A stretch of 64,000 nucleotides of DNA from the NCBI GenBank assembly GCA_000999095.1, contig LCFP01000005.1, forward strand, positions 36,945 to 100,944, read 5' to 3'. Below the pieces are notes generated by a model. It was not told where the DNA came from, did no database searches, and worked only from the letters and a program-made list of their open reading frames with translations. Below, in pieces: positions 36,730 to 53,514 of this stretch. Source of the stretch: Candidatus Gottesmanbacteria bacterium GW2011_GWA2_43_14 (GTDB lineage Bacteria; Patescibacteriota; Microgenomatia; 2-02-FULL-39-11). How positions within the stretch are numbered: the stretch's first letter is position 1; every line of letters begins with the position of its first letter. The position numbers were made by a program, and so were the translations under genes.

Positions 36730-38328
36730 TTGTCAAGTTGTCAAGATAGAAAGGACTTGAATGGAAAGAAAGAAGTAGTTATATTACAGGTCATGAGCAG
36801 GGCAGGCAAGATAAAACGGATCAATGAATTGGCTAAGATTGCCCTTAACCTCAGGAAAACCGGAAAGAAAATAGTCCATTGCCACGGAGTCTTTGATCTT
36901 CTCCATCCGGGTCATATCAGACATCTGGAAAGCGCTAAAAAAAACGGGGATGTTTTGGTGGTGACTGTTACGGCTGATGCTTACGTGACCAAGGGTCCGG
37001 GCAGGCCGATTTTTAACCATAATTTACGGGCAGAAGTATTGTCAGCCCTGGAACAGATCGATTATGTATCAATTGTCGAGTCTGATTCTGCCGTCCCAGC
37101 CATCAGAAAGATAAAACCCGACTTTTATGTCAAAGGACCGGATTACCGGAAACGCCGGAATATAAAAGATTTGCCGCAAAAACTGGCGGATGAGGAAAAA
37201 GCGGTAAAAGCGGCCGGGGGCAAGCTTATTTTTTCCCATGATGATATCATTTACAGCTCATCCAAATTGATCAACCAGTACCTGGATGTCTTTCCTCCCA
37301 AAACCAGGCATTATTTGGAAACAATCGGCCGGAAATATACCTCTGATGATATTGCTGGAAAACTCTTAAAGCTGAAACCGCTGAAAGTTTTGATCATCGG
37401 GGATGCCATCATCGACCAGTATGTTTACTGTCTTCCCCTGGGAAAATCGTCCAAAGAACCGATTATGGTCCACCGTCATATTACTGAAGAATCCTATTTG
37501 GGCGGCTCTTTGGCAGCTGCCAATCATATGAGCTCTTTAAGCGGCAACGTGGAAATATTGAGCGTATTAGGCTCCAAAAATTCCTTTGAAAATTTCATCG
37601 GCAAAAATTTAAATCACACCGTTAAAAGACAGTTCTATTTTTGGGAAGACAGGGAAACCATAGTCAAGCGGCGTTTCCTGGACGCCTTTACCAAGCAGAA
37701 ACTTTTCCAGATTTCCTATCTGGGGGAGGATGATATTCCGAAAGTTGTCGAGGATAAAATTATGAATTATCTCAGGAAAAACCTGAATAGTTTCGACCTG
37801 GTGGTTGTTTATGATTTCGGTCACGGACTGTTTACCCCTAAAATCGTTAAATATCTATGCTCCAAAGCACCCTTCCTTGCTCTAAACGTTCAGGCCAACA
37901 GCGCCAATTACGGATTCAATATTATTACCAAATACTCCCGGGCCGATTATATCTGCATCGACGAGCAGGAAATCAGACTGGCCACCCATAAAAAGCACGA
38001 TGATTTAAGGCAACTGATAAGAAAGATTTATAAGAAAATGAAGTGCAGAAATATGATCATTACCCGCGGTCCATACGGCAGCGACGGTTATTTCCGCGGT
38101 AAAGGATTTTTGAACAGCCCGGCTTTGACCGATAAAATTGTCGACAGGGTCGGGGCTGGAGATGCTTTGTTCGCCGTTACCGCTCCCTGCATGGCGAAAG
38201 GATTGGAAAACGACCTGACCGCTTTTATCGGCAATGTGGCAGGCGCTTTGCAGATTCAGACAGTCGGGAATAAGAAACCGGTAGAATTTGCCGAGATGAT
38301 AAAATTCGTCAATAGGTTGCTGAAATGA
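36730..38328 (+). CDS. Bifunctional sugar-phosphate nucleotidyltransferase (HxGH cytidylyltransferase fold, N-terminal) plus PfkB-family sugar kinase (C-terminal); HldE-like with reversed domain order
   Basis: N-terminal HCHGVFDLLHPGHIRHLESAKKNGDVLVVTVTADAYV matches the RfaE-II/HldE adenylyltransferase domain. C-terminal DRVGAGDALFAV matches the PfkB anion-hole motif. Confidence 0.75.
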   Translation: MSSCQDRKDLNGKKEVVILQVMSRAGKIKRINELAKIALNLRKTGKKIVHCHGVFDLLHPGHIRHLESAKKNGDVLVVTVTADAYVTKGPGRPIFNHNLRAEVLSALEQIDYVSIVESDSAVPAIRKIKPDFYVKGPDYRKRRNIKDLPQKLADEEKAVKAAGGKLIFSHDDIIYSSSKLINQYLDVFPPKTRHYLETIGRKYTSDDIAGKLLKLKPLKVLIIGDAIIDQYVYCLPLGKSSKEPIMVHRHITEESYLGGSLAAANHMSSLSGNVEILSVLGSKNSFENFIGKNLNHTVKRQFYFWEDRETIVKRRFLDAFTKQKLFQISYLGEDDIPKVVEDKIMNYLRKNLNSFDLVVVYDFGHGLFTPKIVKYLCSKAPFLALNVQANSANYGFNIITKYSRADYICIDEQEIRLATHKKHDDLRQLIRKIYKKMKCRNMIITRGPYGSDGYFRGKGFLNSPALTDKIVDRVGAGDALFAVTAPCMAKGLENDLTAFIGNVAGALQIQTVGNKKPVEFAEMIKFVNRLLK

Positions 38329-39323
38329 TGAACCAAAGCATAAAAAATGTCCTGGTGACCGGGGGTGCGGGTTACGTAGGGGCAGTGCTTGTGCCTAAAT
38401 TATTAAAGGAAAGTTATAAAGTAAAAGTCCTGGATTTGTTTATCTACGGCAGAAATGTTTTGCCAAAACATAAAAATCTGATTGAGATAGTAGGGGATAT
38501 CAGGGACAGAAAGTTATTACAAAAAGAGCTTAAGGGAGTGGACGGTCTCATCCATTTGGCCGCCATCTCCAACGACCCGAGTTTTGACCTCGACCCCCGC
38601 TTGGGTAAATCAGTTAACTATAAGGCCAATAAACTGCTTACTGACCTTGCGGAAAAGGCCGGAGTAAAAAGATTCGTCTTCGTTTCAACTTCCTCCGTTT
38701 ACGGTATCAAAAAGGAAAAAAACGTGACAGAGGATTTGCCGCTTGAGCCTTTGACCGATTATTCCAAATACAAAGCCCTGTCGGAAAAATATGTGCTCAA
38801 AAAAAACAGCGGTGATTTTACCGTCCTGGCGATCCGGCCGGCGACCGTCTGCGGCTTCTCGCCCAGATTAAGGCTTGATTTGAGCGTCAATATGCTTACC
38901 GTTCAGGCTTTGGTCAATAAAAAAATTACGGTTTTCGGGGGCAGGCAGCTCCGTCCCAATATCCATATAGAAGACATAACCGATTTATACGTTGAATGCC
39001 TGAAATATCCCAAGACTCTTGTCGGAGGCCAGGTGTTCAATGCCGGATATGAGAATCTGTCCGTATCTTCAATTGCCCGTCTGGTCAAAAAAGTCCTGGC
39101 TGATCCGGACATTAAGATTACCGTAACAAAGTCCGCTGACAACCGTTCCTACCATATCAGTTCCGAAAAGATAGCCCGTATCCTCGGTTTCAGGCCGAAA
39201 CATACCGTTGAAGAAGCGATTTCGGATCTGGTTAATGCATTCCGGTCGGGACTGATGGAAAATCCGTTGGACAATGAAATGTATTACAATCTTAAATTGA
39301 TGAAAAAAATTAAATTAAACTGA
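38325..39323 (+). CDS. NAD-dependent epimerase/dehydratase (extended SDR)
   Basis: VLVTGGAGYVGAVLV and YSKYK motifs. Confidence 0.75.
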   Translation: MMNQSIKNVLVTGGAGYVGAVLVPKLLKESYKVKVLDLFIYGRNVLPKHKNLIEIVGDIRDRKLLQKELKGVDGLIHLAAISNDPSFDLDPRLGKSVNYKANKLLTDLAEKAGVKRFVFVSTSSVYGIKKEKNVTEDLPLEPLTDYSKYKALSEKYVLKKNSGDFTVLAIRPATVCGFSPRLRLDLSVNMLTVQALVNKKITVFGGRQLRPNIHIEDITDLYVECLKYPKTLVGGQVFNAGYENLSVSSIARLVKKVLADPDIKITVTKSADNRSYHISSEKIARILGFRPKHTVEEAISDLVNAFRSGLMENPLDNEMYYNLKLMKKIKLN

Positions 39324-39940
39324 TGGCTGATTCTGTCAAAAAAACCGTAGACCGGATCATCGGGAATTATATTTCGGAGTTGAAGCAGGCTTTGGACAGC
39401 CTTGACAGGGCTAGGATTCATAAGGCAGTCGGGATGATCCTGTCGGCTTATATAAACAACCGTAAAGTTTTTATCATGGGCAACGGCGGCAGCGCCGCCA
39501 ATGCCTCCCACTTTGCCTGCGATTTGTCCAAGAACACTTTGGAAAGAGTCGATGATAATAAGGAGAAGCGCTTTAAAGTTTATTCGCTGACCGATAATAC
39601 AGCCCTTTTGACGGCATTTGCCAATGATTTTTCCTTCGAAGACGTTTTCCTGCAGCAACTGAGGAACTTAATCGGGGCCAACGATGTCCTGATTGTTCTA
39701 TCAGGCAGCGGGCAGAGCAAAAATCTGATCAAAGCCGTAACATACGCCAAAAAACGCAGAGCCAAAATCATCGGCATACTCGGCTTTGTAACGGGCGGAA
39801 CCCTGGGCAAACTGGCAGATTGCCCCATCCTCATTCAGAGTAAAGCGTATGGCCCCTGTGAGGATATCCAACTGGTTTTAGACCATATAATAACCACATC
39901 CCTGTCAGTCATGAAAAAAAACCATGCAAAGAAAAAATAA
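39323..39940 (+). CDS. gmhA: Phosphoheptose (sedoheptulose-7-phosphate) isomerase, SIS domain
   Basis: GNGGSAANASHFACDL is a near-exact GmhA signature. Confidence 0.85.
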   Translation: MADSVKKTVDRIIGNYISELKQALDSLDRARIHKAVGMILSAYINNRKVFIMGNGGSAANASHFACDLSKNTLERVDDNKEKRFKVYSLTDNTALLTAFANDFSFEDVFLQQLRNLIGANDVLIVLSGSGQSKNLIKAVTYAKKRRAKIIGILGFVTGGTLGKLADCPILIQSKAYGPCEDIQLVLDHIITTSLSVMKKNHAKKK

Positions 39941-40922
39941 ACCATCATTTTATCACGGCAAAAATATCCTGATTACCGGCGGAGCAGGTTTTATCGGTTC
40001 CAGTCTGGCAATCAGATTGGCTGATGAAGGAGCCGAGCAGGTTTTAGTAGATGCCCTGATCCCCGGTTATGGAGGCAATCTTTTCAACTTAAATCCGGTA
40101 AAGGACCTGGTAAAAATCGTCAAAACAGACATCCGCAACCGGGAGAAAATGAACGGACTGGTCAAAGGCAGGGACATTATTTTTAACCTGGCAGGCACTC
40201 TTTCCCATGTCGACAGTATGACTGACCCGATGACTGATTTGGAAATTAACTGCCGGGCACAGCTGTCTTTCCTGGAATCAGTCAGGCATTTCAACCCGAC
40301 AACCAGAATCATCTATGCAGGGACCAGAAACCAGTACGGTAAAGCGCGGTATTTGCCTGTAGACGAAGACCATCCCCAGGAGCCGACCGATATCAACGGC
40401 ATAAACTCAATCGCCGCGGAAAAATACCACCTCATGTATACCCGGGTATACGGTATCAAGAGCGTATCCTTACGCATGAGCAATATTTACGGTCCGAGAC
40501 ACCAGATGAAGCATCCCCGCCAGGGCGTTTTAAATTATTTCCTCAGGCAAATCATGGACGGAAAGACAGTCCTGCTTTACGGTTCAGGCCAACAGGTGCG
40601 TGACGTAAATTACATTGACGATGTGGTTGAGGCTTTATATCTCGTTGGTCTCAGCAAAAACGGCTGGGGGCAGGCATATAATTTGGGCGGTATACCGCTT
40701 TCGCTTAAGGACTTCGTCAAGTACGCCATTGAAATTTACGGCAGGGGCAAAATGAAAGTCGTACCCTATCCGGCTGACAGGAAAAAGATAGAGATAGGGG
40801 ATTATCAGGCAAGTTGGGAGAAAATGCGCAAGACTTACGGCTGGCAGCCTGTTGTTTCTTTAAAGGAGGGGATTGCCAAAACTTTCGCTTACTACTCCAA
40901 ATACAAAAAATATTACTGGTAA
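39924..40922 (+). CDS. NAD-dependent epimerase/dehydratase (extended SDR)
   Basis: ILITGGAGFIGSSLA Rossmann motif; 332 aa. Confidence 0.7.
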   Translation: MQRKNKPSFYHGKNILITGGAGFIGSSLAIRLADEGAEQVLVDALIPGYGGNLFNLNPVKDLVKIVKTDIRNREKMNGLVKGRDIIFNLAGTLSHVDSMTDPMTDLEINCRAQLSFLESVRHFNPTTRIIYAGTRNQYGKARYLPVDEDHPQEPTDINGINSIAAEKYHLMYTRVYGIKSVSLRMSNIYGPRHQMKHPRQGVLNYFLRQIMDGKTVLLYGSGQQVRDVNYIDDVVEALYLVGLSKNGWGQAYNLGGIPLSLKDFVKYAIEIYGRGKMKVVPYPADRKKIEIGDYQASWEKMRKTYGWQPVVSLKEGIAKTFAYYSKYKKYYW

Positions 40923-42226
40923 GCCGGCCGCAGGAGGTATAAAACCGTCAGATAAGAAAAGACCTGTGAGATGCTTAAGACCCTGCCGAATTCACCGTAA
41001 TCAATAAAGACCGTCAGCAGTATATGATACAGTGCTAGCAGGGAAACAGCCAGCCATTTTGAACTGGCGGCGTTTTTTTTCCTGAAGAAACTCCGTACTT
41101 GCCAGAGAGCAATCGGGATAATAGCCAAGAGTGAATACTGTAAATATCTGTAAGTTTCATACAAAAAAATGATGCTCCGGTTTTCCCGGGTTCCGTGGGT
41201 ACTTAAAATAACTTCGTTATTGGCTTCAGTTATGCCGTATGGGATCTCCCTCAATGTTTTAGTTATATAGTCGGGAAAATTATGCAAAATCACCGATCTG
41301 ACCAGTGGCACCAGCTGGTTCATTTTTTCCTTTTTATCCCAATAGAAAGGCAGGGCAAAGTCCATAAACCTGAAAGGATGGGTTTCCCGGTTTTCAGCCA
41401 GGTATTGTTTTAGAAAGGGATAATAATAATTGTTGTTTGCCGGGCTTATATCCAATTTATAAATAATGATTTTACCTAGAAGTCCGATTTCTCCTGCCCG
41501 GGAAAGTCCGGTATAACCATAATTGAGAAAGTTCAGATATATATAACCGGCTGTCATCAAAGCGGCTGATAATAACCAGAGGAAACCGTGAAAAAGGAAT
41601 TTTTTGCCGTATCGCAGGAGAAGCAGCATTACAACCGGTAAAGGCAGGAGAAAGTAAACCGGTTTGGTCAGAAATAAAAGTGCAGCAACAAGCCCCATTA
41701 AAAAAAGCTTGGATGGCCGGTAAGAATTTAAAATCGACAGCAGAAGATTAGCAAACATCAAAACAATAAATCCGCATAAAGTTTCCGTCAGAAGCAGCCT
41801 TTCCATGGAAAAGACCATGATGTTTAGACCCATAAATAAGGCAAAGAAATAAGAGGCAGCCGGTGAAAATCCCAGCTTTTTGGCCAGACGAAAGGTTAAG
41901 AGGAGGGAAAGCAATCCGAGAAGGGATTGAGCCAGGATAACCACAGTCATATCCCGGTAGAAGGACGGAGAATAAATGGCTGTTTCAGGCCGGTTGTTTA
42001 GAAGTGCGGGCAGCATAAGGAAAAGCGGATAGAGGGGAGACCTTAAATCGTCTATCAATATCTGCCCCCCGATAATTTTTTGTCCCACCCGGTAGTAGCT
42101 GTCGGTGTCGGCATTGACAAAAATGTGGGGATAAGTTCTCCAGTAAATTAAACGGATTCCCGAAACCAAAAAAACAAAGAGCAGAAGAAAGGCAAATTTT
42201 TTTCTTCTTACTATTTTCCGAATCAT
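40913..42226 (-). CDS. Polytopic membrane protein, GT-C-like (DUF2029/GT87-like architecture)
   Basis: 437 aa with about 11 TM helices and an N-terminal loop carrying acidic residues (NADTDSYY). Confidence 0.45.
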   Translation of the reverse strand: MIRKIVRRKKFAFLLLFVFLVSGIRLIYWRTYPHIFVNADTDSYYRVGQKIIGGQILIDDLRSPLYPLFLMLPALLNNRPETAIYSPSFYRDMTVVILAQSLLGLLSLLLTFRLAKKLGFSPAASYFFALFMGLNIMVFSMERLLLTETLCGFIVLMFANLLLSILNSYRPSKLFLMGLVAALLFLTKPVYFLLPLPVVMLLLLRYGKKFLFHGFLWLLSAALMTAGYIYLNFLNYGYTGLSRAGEIGLLGKIIIYKLDISPANNNYYYPFLKQYLAENRETHPFRFMDFALPFYWDKKEKMNQLVPLVRSVILHNFPDYITKTLREIPYGITEANNEVILSTHGTRENRSIIFLYETYRYLQYSLLAIIPIALWQVRSFFRKKNAASSKWLAVSLLALYHILLTVFIDYGEFGRVLSISQVFSYLTVLYLLRPAYQ

Positions 42227-42304
42227 GATTGGTTGTAATATAGCAAAATTACCTGAAGAAAAATATATTTTACTTTGCCCGGGTATCTAGCTAGAATAGC
42301 AATA

Positions 42305-43399
42305 ATGATTCCGGTTTATGACGCCAAAAGGCAGTTAAAACAGTACCGCCGGGAATTCAACAGTGCCATTGAAAAGGTACTCGCTTCCGGGAATTTTATT
42401 TTAGGACCTTATGTTTCCAGATTCGAAAAGGAATTTGCGCAGTACCTGAATGTAAAATATGCGGTTGGCGTAGCATCAGGCACCGATGCCCTGCTGTTGA
42501 GTTTACTGTCTTTGGATATAAAACACGGGGACGAGGTCATTATGCCGGCCAACAGTTACCCGACTGCTTTTGCAGTGGCAGCCGCCGGCGCCCGGCCAAA
42601 GCTGGTTGATATCGACTCTTATTTCAATCTTGACGCGGATAAACTCGAAAAAGCCGTCACTTCCAAAACCCGGGCGGTTATTCCCGTCCATATGTACGGC
42701 AGGACGGCTGATATGGAAAAAATAATCAGTATTGCGGAAAAACACAAGTTGCCGGTAATTGAGGATTGTGCCCAGGCTCATGGTGGGCAATACAGGGGAA
42801 AAAAAGTAGGCACAATTGGAAATATCGGCTGTTTTTCCTTTTATCCGACAAAAAACCTGGGCGCATTCGGTGATGGCGGTATGGTCACAACCGACAACAG
42901 GGAGCTTTACCGGAAAATCCGCAGGCTGCGTTTATACGGAGAAGAGGAAAGATACAAAAGTATGCTTTTAGGGCGGATCAGCCGTTTGGACGAACTGCAG
43001 GCAGCTGTTCTCAACGTCAAGCTGAAATACCTGGACCAATGGAATGAAAGAAGGAGGCGGATAGCTGAAATTTACGAAACTTCCCTCAAGGACTGTCCGT
43101 GCCGCTTGCCCCGCCCGGGCACGCTGGATCATATTTACCATCTTTATGTCATCAGAACAGCCCAAAGAAACAGGCTGAAGAATTATTTAGCCGGGAAAGG
43201 TATTGCCACTGCCATACATTACCCCTTGCCGGTCCACCTGGTTTTCTCATTTAAATATCTGGGGTACAGAAAGGGGGATTTCCCCGAAAGCGAAAAAGCA
43301 GCCGCTGAGATTTTGACGCTGCCGATGTTTCCCGAGCTTAAGGATCAGGAGGTAAAACAAGTAGCTTTAAGTATCAGAAATTTCTTTCTTAAAAAATGA
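42305..43399 (+). CDS. DegT/DnrJ/EryC1/StrS-family PLP-dependent sugar aminotransferase (ArnB-like)
   Basis: GPYVSRFEKEFAQYLNVKYAVGVASGTDALLLSL and FSFYPTKNLGAFGDGG motifs. Confidence 0.85.
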   Translation: MIPVYDAKRQLKQYRREFNSAIEKVLASGNFILGPYVSRFEKEFAQYLNVKYAVGVASGTDALLLSLLSLDIKHGDEVIMPANSYPTAFAVAAAGARPKLVDIDSYFNLDADKLEKAVTSKTRAVIPVHMYGRTADMEKIISIAEKHKLPVIEDCAQAHGGQYRGKKVGTIGNIGCFSFYPTKNLGAFGDGGMVTTDNRELYRKIRRLRLYGEEERYKSMLLGRISRLDELQAAVLNVKLKYLDQWNERRRRIAEIYETSLKDCPCRLPRPGTLDHIYHLYVIRTAQRNRLKNYLAGKGIATAIHYPLPVHLVFSFKYLGYRKGDFPESEKAAAEILTLPMFPELKDQEVKQVALSIRNFFLKK

Positions 43400-44763
43400 T
43401 CAGAAAAATGCGGGCTGAGGACGCAGCACGGGTGGCGCAGATCCATTTTCAGGAAATAACCGGCTTCCTGCCCTCACTGGGAGCGGATTTTTTACGGAAG
43501 TTCTATCTCAACTCTTTAAAAGTACCGGGATTCATAGCCTTTGTGGCGATAGATGAGGGGAGGGTATTTGCTTTTATTACAGCCTGCCGGGTATCGAAAA
43601 ATTTCAGCCGATTGGCAGTCAGTCAGGATCCGTCCGGCTTTTTTTTCAGCCTGATTACCGTTCTTTTAAAAAATCCGCTTAAAATAATAAATTTGGTAAG
43701 GCTTCTGTCCTATAGAGGCTTTGCCCGCAAAGGCGCTGAACTTATATCCCTGGCAGTTGATAAAAAGTACCGGCGCCGGGGCACAGGCAGAAGCTTGTTC
43801 AAAAGGTTGGTAAAGGAGCTTAGGCAATCAAATATCAACAGTTTCCATATAAGCGTTTACGACGGCATGAAAGCAAACAGTTTTTACAGGAAAATGAACT
43901 GCCGGCTGTCGGACAGCTTTAATTTTTTAGGCAAAAAGATGAATGACTATCGGTATGGGCTGGCAGCCGGACGGAAACTGCGGGTAGTGCTTCTCAATTA
44001 TGACAGTTTATACGCCAACCCTGTTTTCCTGCCCCTCTTGGATATGGAAAAAATCGAAATCGTTGCGGTTTTCGATTCCGGCTGCATTCTATACGGAAAA
44101 AGCAATGCAAAAAGCCTTCTTTTTTTATGGAAAAGGCAGGGATACAAATATTTTCTTTTTAAAGCCTGCGACCAGATTGCCTACAGCCTGACGGGTTTAT
44201 GGCCTGCCCGGGGTGTCAGATTTATGAGGGAGATAAAAAAAAGAGATATTCCCATAATAAAAGTACGGGATGTCAATTCGGCTGAGTCGGTAGCAATGCT
44301 GTGCCGCCTTAAACCTGATCTGTTAATATCCTATTTCAACCAGATACTGAAAAAAGAGGTTTTGTCCGTGCCGAAGATAGCCTCTATCAATATCCATCCC
44401 GGATATCTGCCCGAGTTCCGGGGAGTGGCTTCCTCGTTTTGGGCAATGAAGAACAAATCGGCTTACGGCGGGGTCACTTTGCACCATATGAAGTTAAAAC
44501 TTGATGAAGGGGATATTATCTCAAAAGCAAAAGTCCCCATAAGTAATGAATCGCTTCACCGCCACAATTACCTCTGCTGCCGTATGGGAGGTTTGCTTAT
44601 GAGGGAGCTTTTGGGAAAAATTGAATCGGGCAGGAGCATTCCCGGGCAAATTCAGAAGGGCGGCAGTTACTATTCCTGGCCGCGGCCCCGGGATATCGAC
44701 GGTTTTCTGAAACAGGGTTTCTCTTTATTCAAACTCCGTGATCTTAAACTCTATTTTCAGTGA
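43396..44763 (+). CDS. Fusion of N-terminal GNAT acetyltransferase domain and C-terminal formyltransferase (Fmt/ArnA-N-like) domain
   Basis: GNAT motif A LAVDKKYRRRGTGRSL and formyltransferase SLLP motif INIHPGYLPEFRG. Confidence 0.7.
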   Translation: MIRKMRAEDAARVAQIHFQEITGFLPSLGADFLRKFYLNSLKVPGFIAFVAIDEGRVFAFITACRVSKNFSRLAVSQDPSGFFFSLITVLLKNPLKIINLVRLLSYRGFARKGAELISLAVDKKYRRRGTGRSLFKRLVKELRQSNINSFHISVYDGMKANSFYRKMNCRLSDSFNFLGKKMNDYRYGLAAGRKLRVVLLNYDSLYANPVFLPLLDMEKIEIVAVFDSGCILYGKSNAKSLLFLWKRQGYKYFLFKACDQIAYSLTGLWPARGVRFMREIKKRDIPIIKVRDVNSAESVAMLCRLKPDLLISYFNQILKKEVLSVPKIASINIHPGYLPEFRGVASSFWAMKNKSAYGGVTLHHMKLKLDEGDIISKAKVPISNESLHRHNYLCCRMGGLLMRELLGKIESGRSIPGQIQKGGSYYSWPRPRDIDGFLKQGFSLFKLRDLKLYFQ

Positions 44764-44778
44764 TAAACTCTATATAGA

Positions 44779-46272
44779 ATGCCAAAAATAAGTCCGGCCA
44801 AATCCATACAGTGGCTGATAATACTTGGTGCACTGGCGCTTTTTCTGTATTGGAAGTTTGATGTGGGCATCCGCCGTTATTTTGACGTCGATGAATTTGC
44901 CCATCTCCACTGGGGATATAATGTCCATCTGGGCAACAAGCCTTATCAGGACTTTTTTTACAATTTCCCGCCGTTTTTTCTTTACCCGATGGCCGCTATT
45001 TTTTCCGTGTTCGGCCGTACTGCCGCTTCATTGGTCGCGGCCAGAATACTGATGTTTATCGTATTTCTGATCGGCGCTTTTTTCCTGTTTCTCCTTTCAG
45101 CGCTTCTGAGAGGCTATTTTTTTGCCGCAGTCGCCACAACCGTCTTTATTTTTCTGCCTTTGCCTTACGATAAACTGGTTGAGGTCAGGCCTGATTTGCC
45201 TTCTTTGACTGCCGCATTAGCCGGTTTGTATTTTTTCATCCGGGGCAGGGAGGGAAAAAGCCGGAACAAGTTCTTTCTTTCAGGGTTGTTTTTTTCCTTA
45301 AGTTTGGCTCTGGTGCCGAAATCATTGTTTATGCTTTTGCCCCCTTTAATAATTTTCGGAATTGACTTGTTGCGGACGAAGGGAAAAGAGAGGATGTTCA
45401 TTCTGAAAAGTTTCCTGCCGTTTGCTTTGGGCATGCTGATTCCCGGAGTTTTTCTGGTTGTGCTTATTTTAAATACGGACAAACCGTTATTGGCGGTTTA
45501 CTCCATGAGCAGGTTGTCTGTCAATATCGCCAATTCCCTCTCAAGGCAATTTTATATGGCCCCCAACCTTTTTTTCTATCCCAATGACGCCTATTACAGT
45601 TTCGCGGGCTATAATCCTGTTTATTTTTCCAATCTGGCAATCTGGATAGGGGCGGCCATATACGGCATCTGGCAATTTCTGGTTTCATTCACCCTTGATG
45701 ATGAAAAGAAATCCCAGCGGCTGTTTTTATTGACCGGTGTTTTTTTGGCCAACCTGATAGGATTTATCCGTTTTTTTCCGTTGAAGCACGCCCAATACCT
45801 GATGCCTACCGCGCCGTTTGCCGCCTTGTTTTTTACCATGCTCTGGTTTGATTTTTGGCAGAAAACCATCCCGAAAAGATTTGTTCCCATAGCCACCGTC
45901 ACAGGAGTGGTGTTAATTTGCATCCTGGGTTTCAGGATGTACCGTGTCAAGAGGAACTGGACCAATGCCGGAACCCTGGCTAAATTAGAGAGAATACTCA
46001 ATAAATATCCTGCCGACAGCCCGATTTTCGACCTGACCGGCGAGACTGTTTTTTTCCCCGACGGCTATTATTTCTGCTGTCTGCCGTACGGGCAATATCA
46101 GCAGACTCTGCTTTTTGACTATCCGGCACTCGAGTACGACATGGATAAAAAAAATACCCTATATGTCCATGCAGGAATACCAGAACGGCTTAATGTAATT
46201 CCAGATATGCACCGTAAATATTTGGAGGATAATTTCCAATGGTCCGACGACGGCATGATGGAAAGAAAATAG
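44779..46272 (+). CDS. GT-C fold membrane glycosyltransferase, PMT/ArnT family
   Basis: First extracytoplasmic loop YFDVDEFAHLHWG (DE motif) and about 12 TM helices. Confidence 0.65.
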   Translation: MPKISPAKSIQWLIILGALALFLYWKFDVGIRRYFDVDEFAHLHWGYNVHLGNKPYQDFFYNFPPFFLYPMAAIFSVFGRTAASLVAARILMFIVFLIGAFFLFLLSALLRGYFFAAVATTVFIFLPLPYDKLVEVRPDLPSLTAALAGLYFFIRGREGKSRNKFFLSGLFFSLSLALVPKSLFMLLPPLIIFGIDLLRTKGKERMFILKSFLPFALGMLIPGVFLVVLILNTDKPLLAVYSMSRLSVNIANSLSRQFYMAPNLFFYPNDAYYSFAGYNPVYFSNLAIWIGAAIYGIWQFLVSFTLDDEKKSQRLFLLTGVFLANLIGFIRFFPLKHAQYLMPTAPFAALFFTMLWFDFWQKTIPKRFVPIATVTGVVLICILGFRMYRVKRNWTNAGTLAKLERILNKYPADSPIFDLTGETVFFPDGYYFCCLPYGQYQQTLLFDYPALEYDMDKKNTLYVHAGIPERLNVIPDMHRKYLEDNFQWSDDGMMERK

Positions 46273-46278
46273 TAAATT

Positions 46279-47460
46279 ATGAAGCGGATCCTGTTTTTCC
46301 TGCCACTGATAATATTTATATCGGTTTTGGCTGTCTATTTTTTTACCAATCAGGACACGGCAAATTTATTCCGCCATTTTGTTTTCATGGCCGATGCCTT
46401 TCTGCACGGCCGTTTCGACATTGCCAACCCTACTTATGACTTGGGCGACAGGGTAATTGTCAACAACAGGATTTACTTCCAGTTCGGACCGGCTCCTGCT
46501 ATTATCCTTCTCCCCCTGGTTTATATCTGGAAGACAAATGTAAGCCAGACGTATGTATCCATGCTATTCGGCGCTTTAAATTCAGTTCTGGTATATATTT
46601 TGTTGGGCCGGCTTAAAATTCCGGGCCTGGCAAAAAAACTGTTATTGACGGTATTTTTTGCCTTCGGAACAGTGCATTTTTCCTCAGCCGTCACAGGCAC
46701 CACCTGGTTTTTCGCTCACATCATTGCCGTCTTTTTTCTTCTTCTGGCACTTATTGAAAATTTCGGCAAAAAAAGGCCGTTTCTGATGGGATTGTTTTTC
46801 AGCATGGCCGTCTTCAGCCGGCAACCGACTTTTTTATGCCTGCCCTTTTTCCTGCTTTTTCTGAAGAAGGAAGCTCCATACCGGCTGTTTTTCAGGAAGT
46901 TTCTGTTGTTCTTTTTGGGTGCCCTGCCTCTTTTTCTTTTTGCCGCTTTCTATAATTTTGACCGCTTCGGCAATATTTTTGAAGACGGCCGGAATTATGT
47001 ATACAGGGAATATGTCAGCTCGTCCGCTCCTTACACTTTTATGCGCCAAGACAACCCGAACTTTGTTACGGGCATGGTGGACTGGCGTAATATTCCTCTT
47101 AACCTCTATACCTTGTTTTTAATGCCGCCTGTGACAACGCCCAGATTCCCCTATATTGCTCCTTCACCATACGGATTAAGCGTTATTCTGACCAGCCCGT
47201 TTTTCGTATATGCCCTTTGGGCGAAAAGAAACTTTCTGACAAAAGTCTCCTGGCTGGCGGTTGTGCTGATTGCCTTTTTTGATTTTCTTTGGTTTGGGCA
47301 GGGGTGGGTCCAGTTCGGCTACCGATATGTATTGGATTTTATTCCTTTTCTTATGATTCCTCTGGCATTCGGATTCAGAGATATATCCAAATTGAAGATT
47401 TTCCTGCTGTTTTGGTCTGTCATCATCAATACCTGGGGCGCTTATTATCTTAGAGTATAG
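46279..47460 (+). CDS. Polytopic membrane protein, GT-C-like (uncharacterised)
   Basis: 393 aa with more than 9 TM helices. Confidence 0.45.
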   Translation: MKRILFFLPLIIFISVLAVYFFTNQDTANLFRHFVFMADAFLHGRFDIANPTYDLGDRVIVNNRIYFQFGPAPAIILLPLVYIWKTNVSQTYVSMLFGALNSVLVYILLGRLKIPGLAKKLLLTVFFAFGTVHFSSAVTGTTWFFAHIIAVFFLLLALIENFGKKRPFLMGLFFSMAVFSRQPTFLCLPFFLLFLKKEAPYRLFFRKFLLFFLGALPLFLFAAFYNFDRFGNIFEDGRNYVYREYVSSSAPYTFMRQDNPNFVTGMVDWRNIPLNLYTLFLMPPVTTPRFPYIAPSPYGLSVILTSPFFVYALWAKRNFLTKVSWLAVVLIAFFDFLWFGQGWVQFGYRYVLDFIPFLMIPLAFGFRDISKLKIFLLFWSVIINTWGAYYLRV

Positions 47461-47477
47461 GGCAGGGGACATCATAT

Positions 47478-49037
47478 ATGGAAAAACTGGCAGCGGTTTT
47501 GCTGATTGTAGCGGCAGTTGTGGGCATAGAACTTCAATATCTGGTAAATAAATTCCTTACTCCCGAGGGTATGTTTTATCTGGGGACTGTCCATTGGCCT
47601 TCCGATTACTTTTACTACCTGTCCCAATTTGTCCAGGGAAAAGAACATTGGCTTTTTTCAACCATGCTTTTTACACCCGAAAAGCTCAGGCCGGTTCTGG
47701 TCGGCTGGCAAAATGTCCTTACCGGGAGACTACTCATGCTGACAGGCTTGGATGTAATTTCGGCCTATCAGGCAGCCGTGGGAATTTATCTAGCCCTTTT
47801 CTTATACTCAGCCTATTTGTTCATCAGGGAAGTATTCCCCGAAAGCGGGACAAGGAGGATTTTAAGTTTTTTCTTTTTCCTGACTTCAAGTTCGTTTTTT
47901 CATATAAAAGCGGCGGCAGGAAAAATTGAATGGTCATATTTCAACCACTGGTATAACCAGGGCATACCTTTGGCCCGCTTCGGTCCCCGTCCGCACCATT
48001 TACTGGCATATACACTTGGAGTAACAGGCTGGTTATTTTTTGTCCGGAAAAAATATTTTCTGATGGCTTTGGCGGGTTTATTATTGGCCTCGATCAGTCC
48101 GGTAGCCTGGGGATTGGATCTTTTGGCCTTCTTTATAACCTCACTGGTTGGAGAAATCAAAAATAAAACAAAATCCGGCAGCAGATGGAAGTTTCTTCTG
48201 CCATCCGCCATTTATTTTGCCGCAGGAGTGATACCCGCTCTTTATGTCAAAGCCGTCTTCTCGGTCAGTCCCTATAATCTGTCCTCCGTCTGGGAATCTT
48301 ATCAGCACCTGAAACTGAGCCCTTATCATTTATTCCTGGGCACAGGCCTGATTTTCATCCCGGCTGTAATCGGTATCAACAGCTACAGACTCAGGGCAAA
48401 AACCGCCGGAGTTTTCAGTCTGGTATTTTTGGCTTTAGCCGTATTTTTTTACCTGACCGATATCTCGCAGAAATTCAATGTCTCCAATGTCCGCTTCTGG
48501 CCTTCTCAGGTCTATTTGGTTTTCGCTCTTTTGGCAGCAGAAGGCGTTATAAAGACGGCAAAAATATTCGCCAAATTTAAAAAGCAGGCATTGGCTGTCC
48601 TTCTGGTTATCTATCTGTCTTCAATTGCGCCGACGCTTTACCTGTCATACCGTGAGATTCTCAGCCCGAAATACCGGAACGGATATTATTTTATCCCGGA
48701 AGATGTTTTAGATGCGTTTAATAATGCTGAAGTCATGTCAACTCCCGAGGATGTTTTTCTGGTACTCTGGCCTTATAACGAATCTTTTCCTGCTCTTACC
48801 GGCAGAAAAACGTTCTTCGGTTATGAACTTTTTACCATCAACCACCAGGAAAAAATGACCAAAGCATTTGAAATTATTGACGGTAAAATGGGGGAGGCAG
48901 AACTCGGGAAAACCCTGGCATACTATCAGATCAAATATCTTGTGATGTATTCGGGCAATAATTATTTTAAAAAGTTTCCCTTTCTGAAAGCCGTATATAG
49001 CAATCCGATGACGATTATATACAAGGTCGACTTATGA
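47478..49037 (+). CDS. Paralog D of the ~540-aa membrane protein family
   Basis: YLGTVHWPSDYFYYLSQFVQGKEHW and C-terminal block ...IKYLVMYSGNNYF. Confidence 0.55.
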   Translation: MEKLAAVLLIVAAVVGIELQYLVNKFLTPEGMFYLGTVHWPSDYFYYLSQFVQGKEHWLFSTMLFTPEKLRPVLVGWQNVLTGRLLMLTGLDVISAYQAAVGIYLALFLYSAYLFIREVFPESGTRRILSFFFFLTSSSFFHIKAAAGKIEWSYFNHWYNQGIPLARFGPRPHHLLAYTLGVTGWLFFVRKKYFLMALAGLLLASISPVAWGLDLLAFFITSLVGEIKNKTKSGSRWKFLLPSAIYFAAGVIPALYVKAVFSVSPYNLSSVWESYQHLKLSPYHLFLGTGLIFIPAVIGINSYRLRAKTAGVFSLVFLALAVFFYLTDISQKFNVSNVRFWPSQVYLVFALLAAEGVIKTAKIFAKFKKQALAVLLVIYLSSIAPTLYLSYREILSPKYRNGYYFIPEDVLDAFNNAEVMSTPEDVFLVLWPYNESFPALTGRKTFFGYELFTINHQEKMTKAFEIIDGKMGEAELGKTLAYYQIKYLVMYSGNNYFKKFPFLKAVYSNPMTIIYKVDL

Positions 49038-50659
49038 AGTGGAGGATTTTACCGCTGGTTATTTTTTGGCTGGTGATATTGGTAATTGTTGCCCTTCCTG
49101 ATCTGAGGCGGGTTTCTTATACACCCGGTAATTCCTTTTACCCTCTGATCCATAAAGAGCACGAAGACTACTATTCATATTTGTCCTATATCAAACAGGG
49201 CCGGAGCCGGAATACCCTGGTGGATCAGTATACTACCCGGCAGTTGTCTCCTTCGCTTCTCCATAATTACTATTTGATTTTGGGGAAAATCGGGAAAATT
49301 ACGGATTTGTCGGATATTTTCATGTACCGGATCGGTTTATATGCCCCGCTCATCTTTTACGTTTTTATGAGTTTCCGGCTGGTTACCCTTTATCTGCCTC
49401 CCAAATACCATTGGCTGGCTTTGTCCATGATTTTTTTTGCCAGCCCGTATCCTTCGGAAAAGTTCAGTCTTTTAGGCAGAAGTTTTTCATTGGGAGCCGA
49501 ATGGTGGACGGGACTGGATATTTACAGCAGGCTGATGATGAAGCCGCACCATTTTATCTCCACAGCACTCATGATGGCGGCTGTCTACGCTTTCCTGAAA
49601 TTTCTTAGGTTGAGAAAGCTGCACGATTTGGTGTTTACCGGAATATTAATGGATTTGGCCATGGTTTTTTTCGCTCCGCCTGCCTTGATTCTGTTATCCT
49701 CCTTATCATTTCTGTTGTTTGTTTATCTGCTGAGCCTTCTTTACGGGATTATAAAAAAGAATCCTTTGAAAAAGCCAAAATTAAGGGAAGTTGCGGCAGT
49801 AATACTTATCCTGATCTGCTCTCTGTTTATAATTAAATTTGTTCAAAACGAAGCGGCAAAGAAAAACCTGGTGAATTGGGAAAGCGCCAGATTAAACGCT
49901 CCATTGGAATCCCTGCCCCTATTAACTTACAGGTTTTTCCTGCCCCTGGGAATTTTGCCGTTATTTTTCATACCCGCATTTTTTTATATCAGGCGGAAAA
50001 AACAGCTTATTTTTGCCTTTCCCATGCTGATTATTTTCATTTCATACTTGCTGTTTATCTTTTCGGCCAAAGGTATTGTGCCTATACCAATGATCAGGAT
50101 GATTTATTATGCTCCCTATGTTTTCGGCGGTCTGACGGCTGCCTTTGGCGCTGTATACCTGATTGAGCGTACGTCAAAAACCTGCAAAAGGGCAGTATGG
50201 ATCTGTTTAAGTTTGCTGTTTTTTTTAAATGCCCTTTGGGGTTTGAAATCGTATTGGTGGCCTGAGGTGGTAAAAAAAGAGATTTTTCTAAATACCTATA
50301 TTCCTGTTCCTTATCTTGAAGCCATGGATTTTCTAAATTTCGGTACAGACCGCTATTCCAATGTCATGAGCACTTTTTATACCGGTATGTTTATACCCGC
50401 ATTTACTTATAACAAGGTTTATATCGGGCATGAAGCCATTGAGGAGTTTCCCGTAATTTGGTGGACAGCCGGACATTTTATGGCGGGTAAATTTTCAGCC
50501 GGTGACGCCGCGAAGTTTTTGACGGAAAACCGGATCGACTATGTTTTCTGGGATCAGGGAGATTTACCGCAGGCGTATTCGGGTCTGATGGATCAGGTCT
50601 ATAAAAATGAATACGTAACAATATATAAGATAGTGGAAACGCAAGATAAGCCGGGCTAA
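49034..50659 (+). CDS. Paralog E of the ~540-aa membrane protein family
   Basis: YPLIHKEHEDYYSYLSYIKQGRS and C-terminal YTGMFIPAFTYNKVYIGHEA...IDYVFWDQGD. ATGA-coupled to paralog D. Confidence 0.55.
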   Translation: MKWRILPLVIFWLVILVIVALPDLRRVSYTPGNSFYPLIHKEHEDYYSYLSYIKQGRSRNTLVDQYTTRQLSPSLLHNYYLILGKIGKITDLSDIFMYRIGLYAPLIFYVFMSFRLVTLYLPPKYHWLALSMIFFASPYPSEKFSLLGRSFSLGAEWWTGLDIYSRLMMKPHHFISTALMMAAVYAFLKFLRLRKLHDLVFTGILMDLAMVFFAPPALILLSSLSFLLFVYLLSLLYGIIKKNPLKKPKLREVAAVILILICSLFIIKFVQNEAAKKNLVNWESARLNAPLESLPLLTYRFFLPLGILPLFFIPAFFYIRRKKQLIFAFPMLIIFISYLLFIFSAKGIVPIPMIRMIYYAPYVFGGLTAAFGAVYLIERTSKTCKRAVWICLSLLFFLNALWGLKSYWWPEVVKKEIFLNTYIPVPYLEAMDFLNFGTDRYSNVMSTFYTGMFIPAFTYNKVYIGHEAIEEFPVIWWTAGHFMAGKFSAGDAAKFLTENRIDYVFWDQGDLPQAYSGLMDQVYKNEYVTIYKIVETQDKPG

Positions 50660-52656: not shown

Positions 52657-53514
52657 ATGTCAGTTTTATCCCGATTAGAAGCTGAAAGGCATTATATTAT
52701 CAGAGCAGATGAAATTGCGACTAGACTCACAAGAATTGAGTCAAATTTACCTTTGATTACAGATGAACGCGTAAATAAGCAGGACAATATTGCAAAACAC
52801 GTAATTGTCAGGTCGATTATAGCAGGAGATTTTTCCGGTACAAATATAAGTGAGTCTGTGATTGTTGACTCTCAACTGACTGGTAATTTCAACGGTGCAG
52901 ATTTGACTGAAACAGATTTTATTGACACAGGTTTTAAAGGTGATTTTATTGGTTGTCCGAATAGCGGCTCATACTATAGAAGATGTGATATTTCCGGAGC
53001 AAAATTTAATCAAAGAGTGCCTAGAAGTGTTGCAATTGATGATCTTAAAATAAAAAGACTTACAGGTATTGTCATTTTTTGTGCGAGGGTAGAAGAAAGT
53101 ATGTTTGAATCTGATGATTTTGCTGTTTTCATGCCTGTAAATTTTAAATTAAAGGAGTTAGAAATTCCATTTTTGGCAAGATTGTATTTTGACGGAATTA
53201 GGAAAAAATTAGGATTGATTTCAACCCAAGATTTATTAGTTGGAAATTCCGATTTTTCAGAAGATAGAATATGGTCCGGTTTTATATATACAATGCCTAG
53301 AGAACAAGTGGAAATTAGACAACTAATAATTGAGAGAATGGTTCAAGCACATGGCCAAAGTTCAGAATTTAAAATTGCCGACCCGTTAGAAATTAGAGTC
53401 CAAGATCAAGGATTAACATTACGTCCAGCAAGACCGTTAGATATAGTAAAAATAGAACATAACCTGGCAGGTATTCATGGACAGATTAGGGAGAGTATAG
53501 CTCCGATCATATGA
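52657..53514 (+). CDS. Hypothetical protein with a pentapeptide-repeat-like segment; AT-rich
   Basis: Residues ~60-110 (GDFSGTNISESVIVDSQLTGNFNGADLTETDFIDTGFKGDF) resemble pentapeptide repeats. GC is clearly lower than the flanking genes. Confidence 0.4.
   Translation: MSVLSRLEAERHYIIRADEIATRLTRIESNLPLITDERVNKQDNIAKHVIVRSIIAGDFSGTNISESVIVDSQLTGNFNGADLTETDFIDTGFKGDFIGCPNSGSYYRRCDISGAKFNQRVPRSVAIDDLKIKRLTGIVIFCARVEESMFESDDFAVFMPVNFKLKELEIPFLARLYFDGIRKKLGLISTQDLLVGNSDFSEDRIWSGFIYTMPREQVEIRQLIIERMVQAHGQSSEFKIADPLEIRVQDQGLTLRPARPLDIVKIEHNLAGIHGQIRESIAPII

Follow-up and report, generated by a model that had tools for sequence, protein, structure and literature searches.

Sugar N-acetyl- and N-formyltransferases usually supply Leloir enzymes, and to our knowledge the characterised glycan-associated members of the formyltransferase fold (ArnA, WbkC, WlaRD and VioF) all use nucleotide-linked amino sugars. 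Extra domains of unclear function are frequent in sugar N-formyltransferases, the ankyrin repeats of QdtF (4xcz/4xd1) being one example. Three-component extracytoplasmic glycosylation combines a polyprenyl-phosphate GT2, a flippase and a GT-C transferase. The mechanism is known from monoderm hosts, and its examples include GT136 pentofuranose systems (PMC11127046) and LTA/WTA systems (PMC5836110). The Arn pathway of Gram-negative bacteria (ArnB, ArnA, ArnC, ArnD, ArnE/F and ArnT) places L-Ara4N on lipid A. Its ArnC is reported to use the formylated sugar (PMC12690121).

Here we describe a gene block from a CPR bacterium in which a DegT-family aminotransferase, a GNAT–formyltransferase fusion and a PMT_2-type membrane protein form a tightly packed operon (Table 1). 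The window, the whole stretch of 64,000 nucleotides that was analysed, contains all five ORFs that a sequence-only reading had assembled into an Ara4N-like module, each where that reading had placed it. The likeness to Arn lies in an N-acyl cap, with the ArnA-type formyltransferase fold and the same Asn/His/Asp triad, that comes after a DegT-family aminotransferase, in a membrane GT2 and a PMT_2-type GT-C and, at the related locus L021, in an ArnE/ArnF-like pair between the GT-C gene and the GT2 orthologue. The block differs from Arn in that a GNAT domain takes the place of the UDP-GlcA decarboxylase domain, the ArnD deformylase is missing, the aminotransferase is of the C-3 (QdtB/DesV) type and the precursor genes are heptose-type; moreover, it has been proposed that CPR bacteria have no outer membrane (bioRxiv 10.1101/2025.01.22.634366) and hence no lipid A. 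The Arn-like logic of the earlier proposal is supported, whereas its Ara4N, ArnB, ArnC and ArnT identities are not, every Arn equivalog model scoring far below its cut-off. As in the GtrA/B/C and CsbB/GtcA/YfhO systems, a GT2 with C-terminal TM helices and a GT-C share one locus; unlike in those systems, the sugar would be a dedicated, newly made N-acyl amino sugar, served by an aminotransferase and a dual capping enzyme of its own, and the window showed no recognisable flippase. We favour, with a probability of about 0.45, a reading of the fusion as a dual N-acyl capping enzyme in a polyprenyl-phosphate/GT-C glycosylation route.

Table 1. Features of the gene block in window coordinates
Position	Strand	Feature	Evidence
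36730..38328	+	HldE-like bifunctional protein	Pfam CTP_transf_like + PfkB
38325..39323	+	Extended SDR, canonical Ser/YxxxK site, epimerase/reductase type	Pfam Epimerase 2.9e-35
39323..39940	+	SIS-domain GmhA-like sugar-phosphate isomerase	SIS_2 2.1e-17
39924..40922	+	Atypical extended SDR	Epimerase 9.6e-43
40913..42226	-	PMT_2-type polytopic membrane protein, probable GT-C, divergent	PMT_2 28.6 bits (cut-off 26.1)
42275..43399	+	DegT/DnrJ/EryC1-family PLP sugar aminotransferase, QdtB/DesV type	PF01041 E 2.4e-113
43396..43959	+	GNAT domain of fusion, residues 1-188	Acetyltransf_1, motif A, AF2 model
43978..44763	+	Formyltransferase domain of fusion, residues 195-455	Formyl_trans_N, triad, Foldseek
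44779..46272	+	Polytopic membrane protein, probable PMT_2-type GT-C transferase	497 aa, PMT_2 E 4.2e-5
46279..47460	+	Polytopic membrane protein, function unassigned	393 aa, ~7 hydrophobic segments
47478..50659	+	Two operon genes (519 + 541 aa), polytopic membrane proteins	no Pfam match
55175..56200	+	GT2, two C-terminal TM helices	PF00535 E 2e-30

The GNAT–formyltransferase fusion

The fusion is encoded by a single frame of 455 aa (43396-44763) with zero internal stops, and its product is 100% identical to KKS97807.1 from a Candidatus Gottesmanbacteria MAG. Its ATG overlaps the stop codon of the QdtB-like DegT gene (ATGA), to which it is translationally coupled. A search of other genomes, as the sequence-only reading had proposed, found eight full-length homologues in independent assemblies, seven at 43–57% identity and one at 29%, with the same neighbours as in the window; the fusion is therefore real and not the artefact of a missed stop or frameshift against which that reading had cautioned. 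It is also rare, occurring in 2 of 1.84 billion cluster representatives.

The formyltransferase domain scores 60.3 bits against the Pfam Formyl_trans_N model (cut-off 26.1), and its N332, H334 and D370 align with N102, H104 and D140 of ArnA. This triad is invariant in 12 of 12 close sequences, and across 62 members of the subfamily the His and Asp are invariant and the Asn is kept in at least 90%; by these residues the domain does not look degenerate. Foldseek matches it to Fmt, ArnA and WbkC at E ~1e-15, with WbkC the closest in structure after length normalisation (TM 0.70) and ArnA among the best sequence matches. It resembles the sugar N-formyltransferases (WbkC, WlaRD, VioF, FdtF/QdtF, Rv3404c and PseJ) in its Formyl_trans_N fold and catalytic triad, its length of ~260 residues, the absence of an Fmt/ArnA-type C-terminal domain and its glycan-cluster context. 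It differs from them in falling within an uncharacterised subfamily apart from theirs (~425 representatives at E<=1e-30) with a 32-residue helical insert (residues 237-268), carried by 58 of the 62 members, and in being fused to a GNAT; the fusions of its relatives involve methyltransferase, PilZ and membrane domains.

The GNAT domain scores 33.8 bits against Pfam Acetyltransf_1 (cut-off 20.7). Its acetyl-CoA motif A (RRRGTGR) is intact, and G131 and Y164 are invariant. The AF2 model (pLDDT 92) has GNATs as its structural neighbours, the nearest being the generic members 1wk4, CBU0801, FeeM, Ard1 and RimI. The domain shares with the sugar N-acetyltransferases WecD and PseH the GNAT fold, the acetyl-CoA motif and a position directly after a DegT aminotransferase, but specifically resembles neither of them in sequence or structure and contains a three-helix insert (~residues 70-105) common only to its own subfamily. 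A gene of this subfamily adjoins the DegT gene, or lies one gene away, in every locus examined, with or without a formyltransferase; acetylation by the GNAT looks like the ancestral core activity, and the formyltransferase like an accreted module added onto it. Cofactor and catalytic motifs are kept in both domains, both of which look competent, and by motifs and context the product is best read as a genuine bifunctional N-acyltransferase.

Precursor genes and probable membrane transferases

Gene callers and the public annotation start the DegT gene at a TTG (374 aa), the ATG at 42305 being internal. Its closest solved relatives are QdtB (332 bits), DesV (310), WlaRG (304) and WbpE (255), as opposed to 159–167 bits for ArnB structures; it thus appears closest to the C-3 aminotransferases QdtB and DesV. 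By their family matches the adjoining sugar genes (GmhA-like, HldE-like and SDRs) are heptose-type. The HldE-like protein, 81% identical in L009, has a reversed domain order, with the nucleotidyltransferase N-terminal and the PfkB kinase C-terminal; it scores 180 bits with the NCBIfam HldE model, below the cut-off of 521, and probably activates heptose or a related sugar phosphate. The GmhA-like gene, kept in L009 and L021, reaches 98–104 bits with phosphoheptose isomerase models, again under the cut-off, and the canonical SDR is 62% identical to its L021 counterpart. Of the nucleotide-sugar enzymes, the atypical SDR (64–74% identical in L009, L001 and L021) accompanies the module most consistently; in an alignment with GalE it lacks the catalytic Tyr and Lys (Y->N, K->S), and so does not account for the keto-sugar step.

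The membrane protein encoded directly after the fusion has ~9 hydrophobic segments and had been assigned to the PMT/ArnT family. Its own PMT_2 match is sub-threshold (24.3 versus 26.1 bits) and it had no match among PDB sequences; its orthologues bear PF13231 in precomputed tables, and hhalign against a solid PMT_2 family gave a probability of 79% (E 1.7e-5). The first-loop motif YFDxDEFAHLHWGY is invariant, including D36, D38 and E39. These weak profile matches make it a probable PMT_2-type GT-C transferase, and the ArnT identity is not supported. The following protein had been described as GT-C-like; it is polytopic and the GT-C class is plausible, but its sole family match, to the LA_3751/LA_3752 putative glycosyltransferase model, is weak (25.8 bits versus a cut-off of 200). 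No other membrane protein of the block is so well conserved (78–79% identical in L009 and L002), and it may act as a GT-C-like transferase or in transport. The next two genes, also kept in L009 and L002, belong by BLAST to a six-member paralogous membrane-protein family with no family assignment, and the divergent protein upstream of DegT has at least six hydrophobic segments and is 47% identical in L009. The GT2 and its C-terminal hydrophobic helices (residues 277-295 and 313-331) are as previously described, the claimed resemblance to ArnC less so: it scores 39.5 bits with the ArnC model (cut-off 529), and among solved structures a crenarchaeal membrane GT2 (6yv7) matches it best, with GtrB and ArnC ranking behind. 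It is a candidate polyprenyl-phosphate amino-sugar transferase, an analogue and not an orthologue of ArnC.

The proposed route and its alternatives

The order DegT–fusion–PMT_2 is found in L001, L002 and L009, while L017 and L021/L022 have a stand-alone GNAT between DegT and PMT_2; the PMT_2-type gene comes after the GNAT(–formyltransferase) gene in L001, L002, L009, L017 and L021. L018 has the order DegT–GT2–GNAT, and L019/L020 dehydratase–FdtA–DegT–GT2–fusion with GT-C genes nearby. Two small proteins are encoded after the PMT_2 gene of L021, and NCBIfam matches them to ArnF (1e-12) and ArnE (5e-10) and to nothing else; next comes the gene of a GT2 60% identical to the one at 55175-56200 in the window. 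The L002 block includes a FolC-like gene, consistent with folate use. This conserved synteny supports a logic of aminotransferase, N-acyl cap, membrane GT2 and GT-C.

In the proposed route, DegT would aminate a nucleotide-activated keto-sugar, here probably heptose-derived and in a relative hexose-derived, and the fusion would cap the new amine in the cytoplasm, the GNAT adding acetyl or the accreted formyltransferase domain adding formyl instead. Acetyl and formyl together on one nitrogen are impossible; the earlier suggestion, that a single amino sugar is subject to both N-formyl and N-acetyl chemistry, is a reasonable reading of the two domains. As also noted earlier, no polysaccharide-deacetylase or ArnD-like protein was found among the scanned window ORFs of at least 150 aa, and the cap would therefore probably stay on. 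The membrane-anchored GT2 would then move the N-acyl amino sugar onto polyprenyl phosphate, the lipid-linked sugar would be flipped across the membrane, and the GT-C encoded after the fusion would hand the sugar to an extracytoplasmic acceptor, be it a protein of the cell surface, a lipoglycan or a polymer of the wall.

Two competing caps in one protein, in a block with one aminotransferase, are an unusual design, and the two domains might use different acceptors, the GNAT acetylating the DegT-derived NDP-amino sugar and the formyltransferase acting at the membrane face on another amine, for instance of a polyprenyl-phosphate-linked sugar, glycan or lipid, together with the downstream polytopic membrane protein. 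The formyltransferase may indeed do so, since its subfamily occurs, stand-alone or differently fused, in glycan clusters that lack a DegT gene for ~8 kb around it (L005, L024) and, in P0099, fused to a polytopic membrane protein with at least eight TM segments. Its other fusions, to SAM methyltransferases and PilZ domains, its subfamily-specific insert and its position directly before a polytopic membrane protein gene (L024 and the window) or directly after a small GT2 (L019, L024) point the same way. However, the insert has an unremarkable hydrophobic moment, the window shows no other source of an amine, and the best structural matches are among the glycan-associated enzymes that act on nucleotide-linked sugars; we regard separate acceptors as somewhat unlikely.

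The amino sugar could also be an ordinary nucleotide-sugar donor for cytoplasmic Leloir transferases building an S-layer or wall glycan, which is the normal role of such acyltransferases. With at least 12 polytopic GT-C-like proteins and five GT2s, the window is so rich in these genes that their adjacency to the module could arise by crowding. Such crowding would sit poorly with a DegT–GNAT(–formyltransferase)–PMT_2 order that five lineages share at protein identities of only 29–64%, and with the ArnE/F-like proteins and GT2 orthologue right after the PMT_2 gene in L021; nor did a Pfam family scan of ORFs reveal any GT4/GT1-type Leloir transferase at 36–57 kb of the window. We judge this account improbable.

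It is more doubtful still that one domain is catalytically silent and serves in binding, regulation or scaffolding, whether as a sensor of acetyl-CoA or folate or as a stand-in for the missing Fmt/ArnA C-terminal domain. The extra domains common in sugar N-formyltransferases offer a precedent, and the GNAT is the less conserved half (35–50% identity in GNAT-only alignments versus 43–57% for the whole protein), but the motifs of both domains are conserved family-wide and each half is also encoded in glycan clusters as a protein on its own. A true system for Ara4N-type modification of lipid A, for all its similar enzyme classes and order and the ArnA sequence match, is effectively refuted by the Arn model scores, the C-3-type DegT, the heptose-type genes, the lack of ArnD and of any UDP-GlcA dehydrogenase or decarboxylase at the locus, and the host.

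The reading that we prefer, a dual capping enzyme feeding a lipid-linked route, is best described as a three-component logic of the Arn kind in which sugar, cap and target all differ. The route is not one of aminoarabinose and, because an outer membrane is proposed to be absent from CPR bacteria such as the host, it is not aimed at lipid A; the gene cluster probably serves to decorate the cell surface, by way of a lipid carrier, with an N-acylated amino sugar.

The GNAT–formyltransferase fusion

The fusion is a soluble two-domain enzyme with intact active sites; its gene lies in a CPR operon that also encodes a PMT_2-like membrane protein and a QdtB-like aminotransferase. Every open reading frame (ORF) named in the sequence-only reading was found where that reading had placed it, and its central observation, that a GNAT and a formyltransferase domain are joined in one protein, is borne out by a single ORF without an internal stop and by full-length homologues in separate assemblies; a missed stop codon or frameshift can be discounted. 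The start codon overlaps the stop codon of the aminotransferase gene (ATGA). In Pfam, Formyl_trans_N matches residues 293–385 with 60.3 bits against a cut-off of 26.1, and several GNAT models match, including Acetyltransf_1 (33.8 bits against 20.7, residues 102–167). An AlphaFold2 model of the whole protein (pLDDT 86.9) places the domain boundaries at residues 1–188 for the GNAT domain and ~195–455 for the formyltransferase. The protein is identical to KKS97807.1 from a Candidatus Gottesmanbacteria MAG (100% identity across 455 residues), which is annotated solely as 'formyl transferase domain-containing protein'; public records label the fusion by a single domain or as hypothetical.

A search of 5.8 billion clusters yielded seven other full-length homologues at 43–57% identity, from ENA, Logan, JGI and NCBI assemblies, to which P0047, a database protein of 432 residues that is 29% identical to the fusion, can be added. 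When 1.84 billion 50%-identity representatives were searched exhaustively with an HMM, two only had the full architecture, those of the P0008 cluster and P0047. A contig scan of the genome collection with the fusion protein as single query gave no matches, and an alignment-based genome scan found one true relative, in the comparison locus L009, the remaining matches being Fmt-like genes of the ordinary kind from haloarchaea and other organisms. No description of the GNAT–formyltransferase combination was found in the searchable literature, and literature searches on Gottesmanbacteria glycosyltransferases and on GT-C glycosylation in CPR bacteria gave no relevant description. The fusion is a rare domain combination in an unusual host, for which a dual-cap function is plausible. 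In one Gottesmanbacteria MAG the gene, in the 90%-identity cluster of L009:10001–11368, occurs as separate pieces of 222 (the GNAT) and 92 residues (KKS47149.1 and KKS47150.1), a split that probably reflects a frameshift or faulty assembly and is not natural.

The formyltransferase triad is not degenerate: N332, H334 and D370 align with N102, H104 and D140 of ArnA. None of the three varies among the 12 closest sequences; in 62 diverse members of the subfamily the His and Asp never change, and the Asn is kept in at least 90%. The top Foldseek matches of the domain are Fmt, the ArnA formyltransferase domain and the GDP-perosamine N-formyltransferase WbkC (E ~1e-15), the last with a TM-score of 0.70 normalised to the target. 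By its profile score, its Fmt/PurN fold and its Asn-His-Asp triad the domain is assigned to the Formyl_trans_N family, as a member of an uncharacterised subfamily with formyl transfer to an NDP-amino sugar as its putative activity. The acetyl-CoA motif of the GNAT domain, R126-R-R-G-T-G131 (pyrophosphate-binding Q/R-x-x-G-x-G/A), is kept. Across all 24 sequences of one GNAT alignment (A7), G131, L134 and Y164 do not vary; F163 shows no variation in a second alignment (A2) and is found in at least 90% of the sequences in A7. A domain-only AF2 model (pLDDT 92) has the GNAT fold and matches GNAT structures. Profile score, fold and motif make the domain a member of the GNAT superfamily, in an uncharacterised subfamily. 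Foldseek with the isolated model returned generic GNAT neighbours only and is therefore uninformative on the substrate; homologue searches by word index, run with the GNAT domain alone or with its alignment, returned almost nothing.

Both domains also occur alone. Stand-alone GNATs of ~190 residues, 28–40% identical to the window's GNAT domain, match profile positions 1–189 including a three-helix insert, and P0114 carries the subfamily as a tandem GNAT–GNAT protein. Free-standing formyltransferases of ~265–280 residues match positions 194–450; the whole-protein profile finds ~425 representatives at E<=1e-30, which among the matches listed are mostly such free-standing enzymes. Of the 62 members, 58 carry a helical insert of 32 residues that defines the formyltransferase subfamily; a reading of this insert as an amphipathic membrane anchor is unsupported speculation, the hydrophobic moment of 0.3–0.38 lying near the protein average.

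The surrounding operon and related loci

The genes from 42275 to 50659 run in the same direction with gaps of at most 17 bases or overlaps of 4 bases and therefore form one operon. The aminotransferase may begin at a TTG at 42275, giving the 374-residue form of public gene calls, and not at 42305 as read earlier. Its DegT family membership holds but its proposed ArnB identity does not, at 213 bits against an equivalog cut-off of 631. Among solved relatives the C-3 type enzymes score highest (QdtB 332, DesV 310, WlaRG 304, WbpE 255 bits) and those of C-4 type lower (perosamine synthase 184, ArnB 159–167 bits). The protein encoded behind the fusion is a candidate GT-C transferase of the PMT_2 type: its PMT_2 match of 24.3 bits falls just under the Pfam threshold of 26.1, hhalign against the PMT_2 family gives 79%, and an acidic first-loop motif after TM1 (D36/D38/E39) is invariant; a profile of its family had no match among PDB sequences. 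The next gene does encode a membrane protein, for whose GT-C-like character the support is one weak match, to the LA_3751/LA_3752 putative glycosyltransferase family. The GT2 at 55175–56200 has the architecture expected of an ArnC-like protein, but scores 39.5 bits with the ArnC model against a cut-off of 529, and resembles GtrB, ArnC and DPMS only weakly in sequence (E 3e-8 to 2e-4).

Features of the module and of other parts of the window
Feature	Position	Strand	Remarks
DegT/DnrJ/EryC1 aminotransferase	42275–43399	+	PF01041, E 2.4e-113
GNAT–formyltransferase fusion	43396–44763	+	one unbroken ORF, 455 codons; Formyl_trans_N and GNAT models
PMT_2-like membrane protein	44779–46272	+	497 aa, ~9 hydrophobic segments
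Membrane protein	46279–47460	+	393 aa
GT2	55175–56200	+	GT-A domain, two C-terminal hydrophobic helices
HldE-like protein	36730–38328		reversed domain order: nucleotidyltransferase N-terminal, PfkB kinase C-terminal
Extended SDR	39924–40922		
Six-paralogue membrane protein family	14316–16043	+	
Same family	16790–18424	-	
Same family	19240–20883	-	
Same family	47478–49037	+	
Same family	49034–50659	+	
Same family	53507–55135	-	
Alg6/Alg8-like protein	11878–13656		NPCBM domain
Small soluble GT2s	18509, 22562, 25863		within 9612–27052
PMT_2 protein	20891–22552		solid match
NodS-like methyltransferase	25191–25856		
Sugar-nucleotide operon	28150–34944		APH-like kinase, split transketolase, RmlD-like reductase, WbuC-family cupin, methyltransferase, Zn-dependent dehydrogenase, SDR
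WbuC-family cupin	31718–32263		89 bits, cut-off 42
NodU/CmcH-type carbamoyltransferase	2319–4112		
1447-aa ORF	59164–63507	-	only recognisable domain N-terminal, phage-integrase SAM-like

Comparison across loci is the best guide to function. The order DegT, fusion, PMT_2 recurs in two loci from other assemblies, L001 and L009, the latter (from the MAG Candidatus Gottesmanbacteria bacterium RIFCSPLOWO2_01_FULL_42_22) being syntenic with 32910–56200 of the window at 57–81% amino-acid identity gene by gene. In L002 the fusion is followed by PMT_2, the contig beginning just upstream in a partial 123-aa gene that was not compared with DegT; a FolC-like gene inside its conserved block fits folate dependence. 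L019 and L020 have SDR, FdtA ketoisomerase, DegT, GT2 and fusion, then GT2 and GT-C genes. Other loci carry a GNAT in place of the fusion: DegT, GNAT and PMT_2 in L017 (GNAT 41% and PMT_2 49% identical to the window's), DegT, GT2, GNAT, a TPR protein and PMT_2 in L018, and in L021 and L022 SDR and SIS genes and, further on, an atypical SDR (64%), DegT (56%), GNAT, PMT_2 (35%), two small proteins and a GT2. The GNAT subfamily adjoins DegT or sits one gene away in every recovered locus (the upstream gene of L002 being partial), which shows that the GNAT is the fixed partner and that certain lineages have added the formyltransferase. The small L021 proteins (131 and 123 aa) have as sole NCBIfam matches ArnF (1e-12) and ArnE (5e-10), below cut-off, and the GT2 behind them is 60% identical to that at 55175–56200; this identity and the gene order tie the window's distant GT2 to the module. 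L021 supports an Arn-like flow from aminotransferase through N-acyl cap, polyprenyl-phosphate transfer and flipping to GT-C transfer.

The sugar and the proposed pathway

The earlier reading had likened the module to the Arn pathway. A similar flow of enzyme classes is upheld by synteny, but every Arn component lies under equivalog level. The fusion scores 76 bits against 777 for ArnA and misses the C-terminal subdomain; its formyltransferase domain belongs to the ArnA superfamily and is not an ArnA orthologue. The UDP-glucuronate C-4 decarboxylase is absent, the fusion partner being a GNAT and not an SDR, and neighbouring SDRs reach 30–33 bits against the ArnA cut-off of 777. As had been noticed, there is no ArnD-like deformylase: no polysaccharide-deacetylase-type match was found among the scanned window ORFs of at least 150 aa. 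The window contains no ArnE/ArnF pair, its small TM ORFs being without a match and without a BLAST match to the L021 pair, and no dedicated flippase was recognised in it. Because decarboxylase and deformylase are missing and the aminotransferase is nearer C-3 enzymes, the sugar is not Ara4N.

A block at 36730–40922 upstream of the aminotransferase encodes an HldE-like protein, a canonical SDR, a GmhA-like SIS protein and a second, extended SDR, all under equivalog cut-offs; no GmhB-type phosphatase was recognised near the HldE-like gene. In the extended SDR, Asn and Ser stand in for the Tyr and Lys of the catalytic Tyr-x-x-x-Lys, and the TDE motif is missing, which rules out a canonical 4,6-dehydratase; it is 64–74% identical in L009, L001 and L021, better conserved than the surrounding enzymes. 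The window's sugar is more likely an amino-deoxy heptose. In L001, a more distant locus, an NTP_transferase takes the place of the heptose genes, and a hexose is more likely.

We favour, tentatively and with a probability of about 0.45, a dual N-acyl capping enzyme that feeds a polyprenyl-phosphate/GT-C route. The DegT enzyme would aminate an NDP-keto sugar and the fusion would cap the amine, GNAT acetylation being the core reaction and formylation through the added domain the alternative; the GT2 would load the N-acyl sugar onto polyprenyl phosphate, a flippase would move the lipid-linked sugar across the membrane, a role that the 393-residue protein or another unassigned membrane protein could fill, and the PMT_2-like GT-C would put the sugar on a surface acceptor. 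The amide probably persists because no deformylase or deacetylase was found among the ORFs scanned. Such a module works similarly to the Arn pathway, in which ArnC uses the formylated sugar (PMC12690121), and differs in having neither the Arn decarboxylase nor the deformylase; it also resembles the three-component GtrB/flippase/GT-C systems (PMC11127046, PMC5836110). The enzyme classes and pathway logic are familiar, and the surprise would lie in the CPR host and in two predicted alternative N-acyl donors for one protein.

The main rival, in our view unlikely, gives the two domains different acceptors and has the formyltransferase act at the membrane. Its closest free-standing relatives (49–53% identical) stand beside methyltransferase and GT4 genes in L005 and L006; other members are fused to SAM methyltransferases (P0039, P0052, P0155), to PilZ domains (P0106, P0171; a PilZ-fusion contig of 1.3 kb gives no gene context) or, in P0099, to a membrane protein with at least eight TM segments and a large C-terminal domain; and in L024 a small GT2, a methyltransferase–formyltransferase fusion and a 10-TM protein stand in that order, with no DegT gene within range. 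The formyltransferase may therefore not depend on a DegT-derived amine in all cases and may act near the membrane. Less probable is a conventional Leloir pathway whose neighbours are coincidental; the GT2 and GT-C genes would then owe their place to chance, and L021 speaks for their connection. That one domain is silent seems quite improbable, both halves looking functional by the intact sites predicted in each. A true Ara4N modification of lipid A deserves next to no credence. The L009 relative and the exact match to KKS97807.1 together put the window in the Gottesmanbacteria, which belong to the Patescibacteria/Microgenomates, and the absence of an outer membrane has been proposed for CPR bacteria (bioRxiv 10.1101/2025.01.22.634366), which makes lipid A an improbable target.

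More speculatively, and at long odds, the data could be read in one of two ways. CPR bacteria, small in genome and without lipid A, would run an Arn-like pathway whose cap draws on a one-carbon and a two-carbon donor (N10-formyl-THF and acetyl-CoA), so that the surface N-acyl group is switched or mixed by metabolic state; or the formyltransferase half would belong to a new class whose substrates are lipid-linked sugars at the membrane and not nucleotide sugars.

Glycosylation genes across the window

Six paralogous polytopic membrane proteins of ~520–575 aa, without Pfam or NCBIfam match, occur in the 64-kb window, several adjoining small GT2 genes. D43, Y47, G54, R167, P172 and H173 are invariant in 12 members of the family, which may be an undescribed GT-C-like one; hhalign linked neither it nor the 393-residue protein to PMT_2. 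A second stretch dense in glycosylation genes, including other large membrane proteins, spans 9612–27052, and the window as a whole holds at least 12 polytopic GT-C-like proteins. Between 22001 and 28000 the GC content is 0.355–0.369 against ~0.44 elsewhere, and the segment could represent a cassette that varies or was acquired horizontally; it encodes two GT2s, a methyltransferase, a 622-aa membrane protein and small TM ORFs. The N- and C-terminal halves of the transketolase in the separate sugar-nucleotide operon are separate genes, and L018 and L021 likewise have split transketolase-like genes with the module. At 662–8502 lie a Fic/MerR-domain protein, the carbamoyltransferase and an NrtR-like regulator; the nicotinate phosphoribosyltransferase-like, MFS transporter and isochorismatase/nicotinamidase-like genes beside these are likely a NAD salvage unit.

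The surfaces of CPR bacteria are almost unknown biochemically, yet mediate an epibiotic lifestyle, and this Gottesmanbacteria genome gives tens of kilobases to surface glycosylation of the lipid-carrier and GT-C type, with one branch dedicated to an amino sugar. The cluster defines two uncharacterised subfamilies, the DegT-linked GNAT and the insert-bearing formyltransferase, and the fusion, one soluble protein of 455 residues, offers with its DegT partner a concrete and cheap biochemical target. If the two domains do provide alternative caps, they would give the glycans a simple, built-in route to heterogeneity; if they do not, the formyltransferase subfamily, widespread in metagenomes, may have an unrecognised acceptor.
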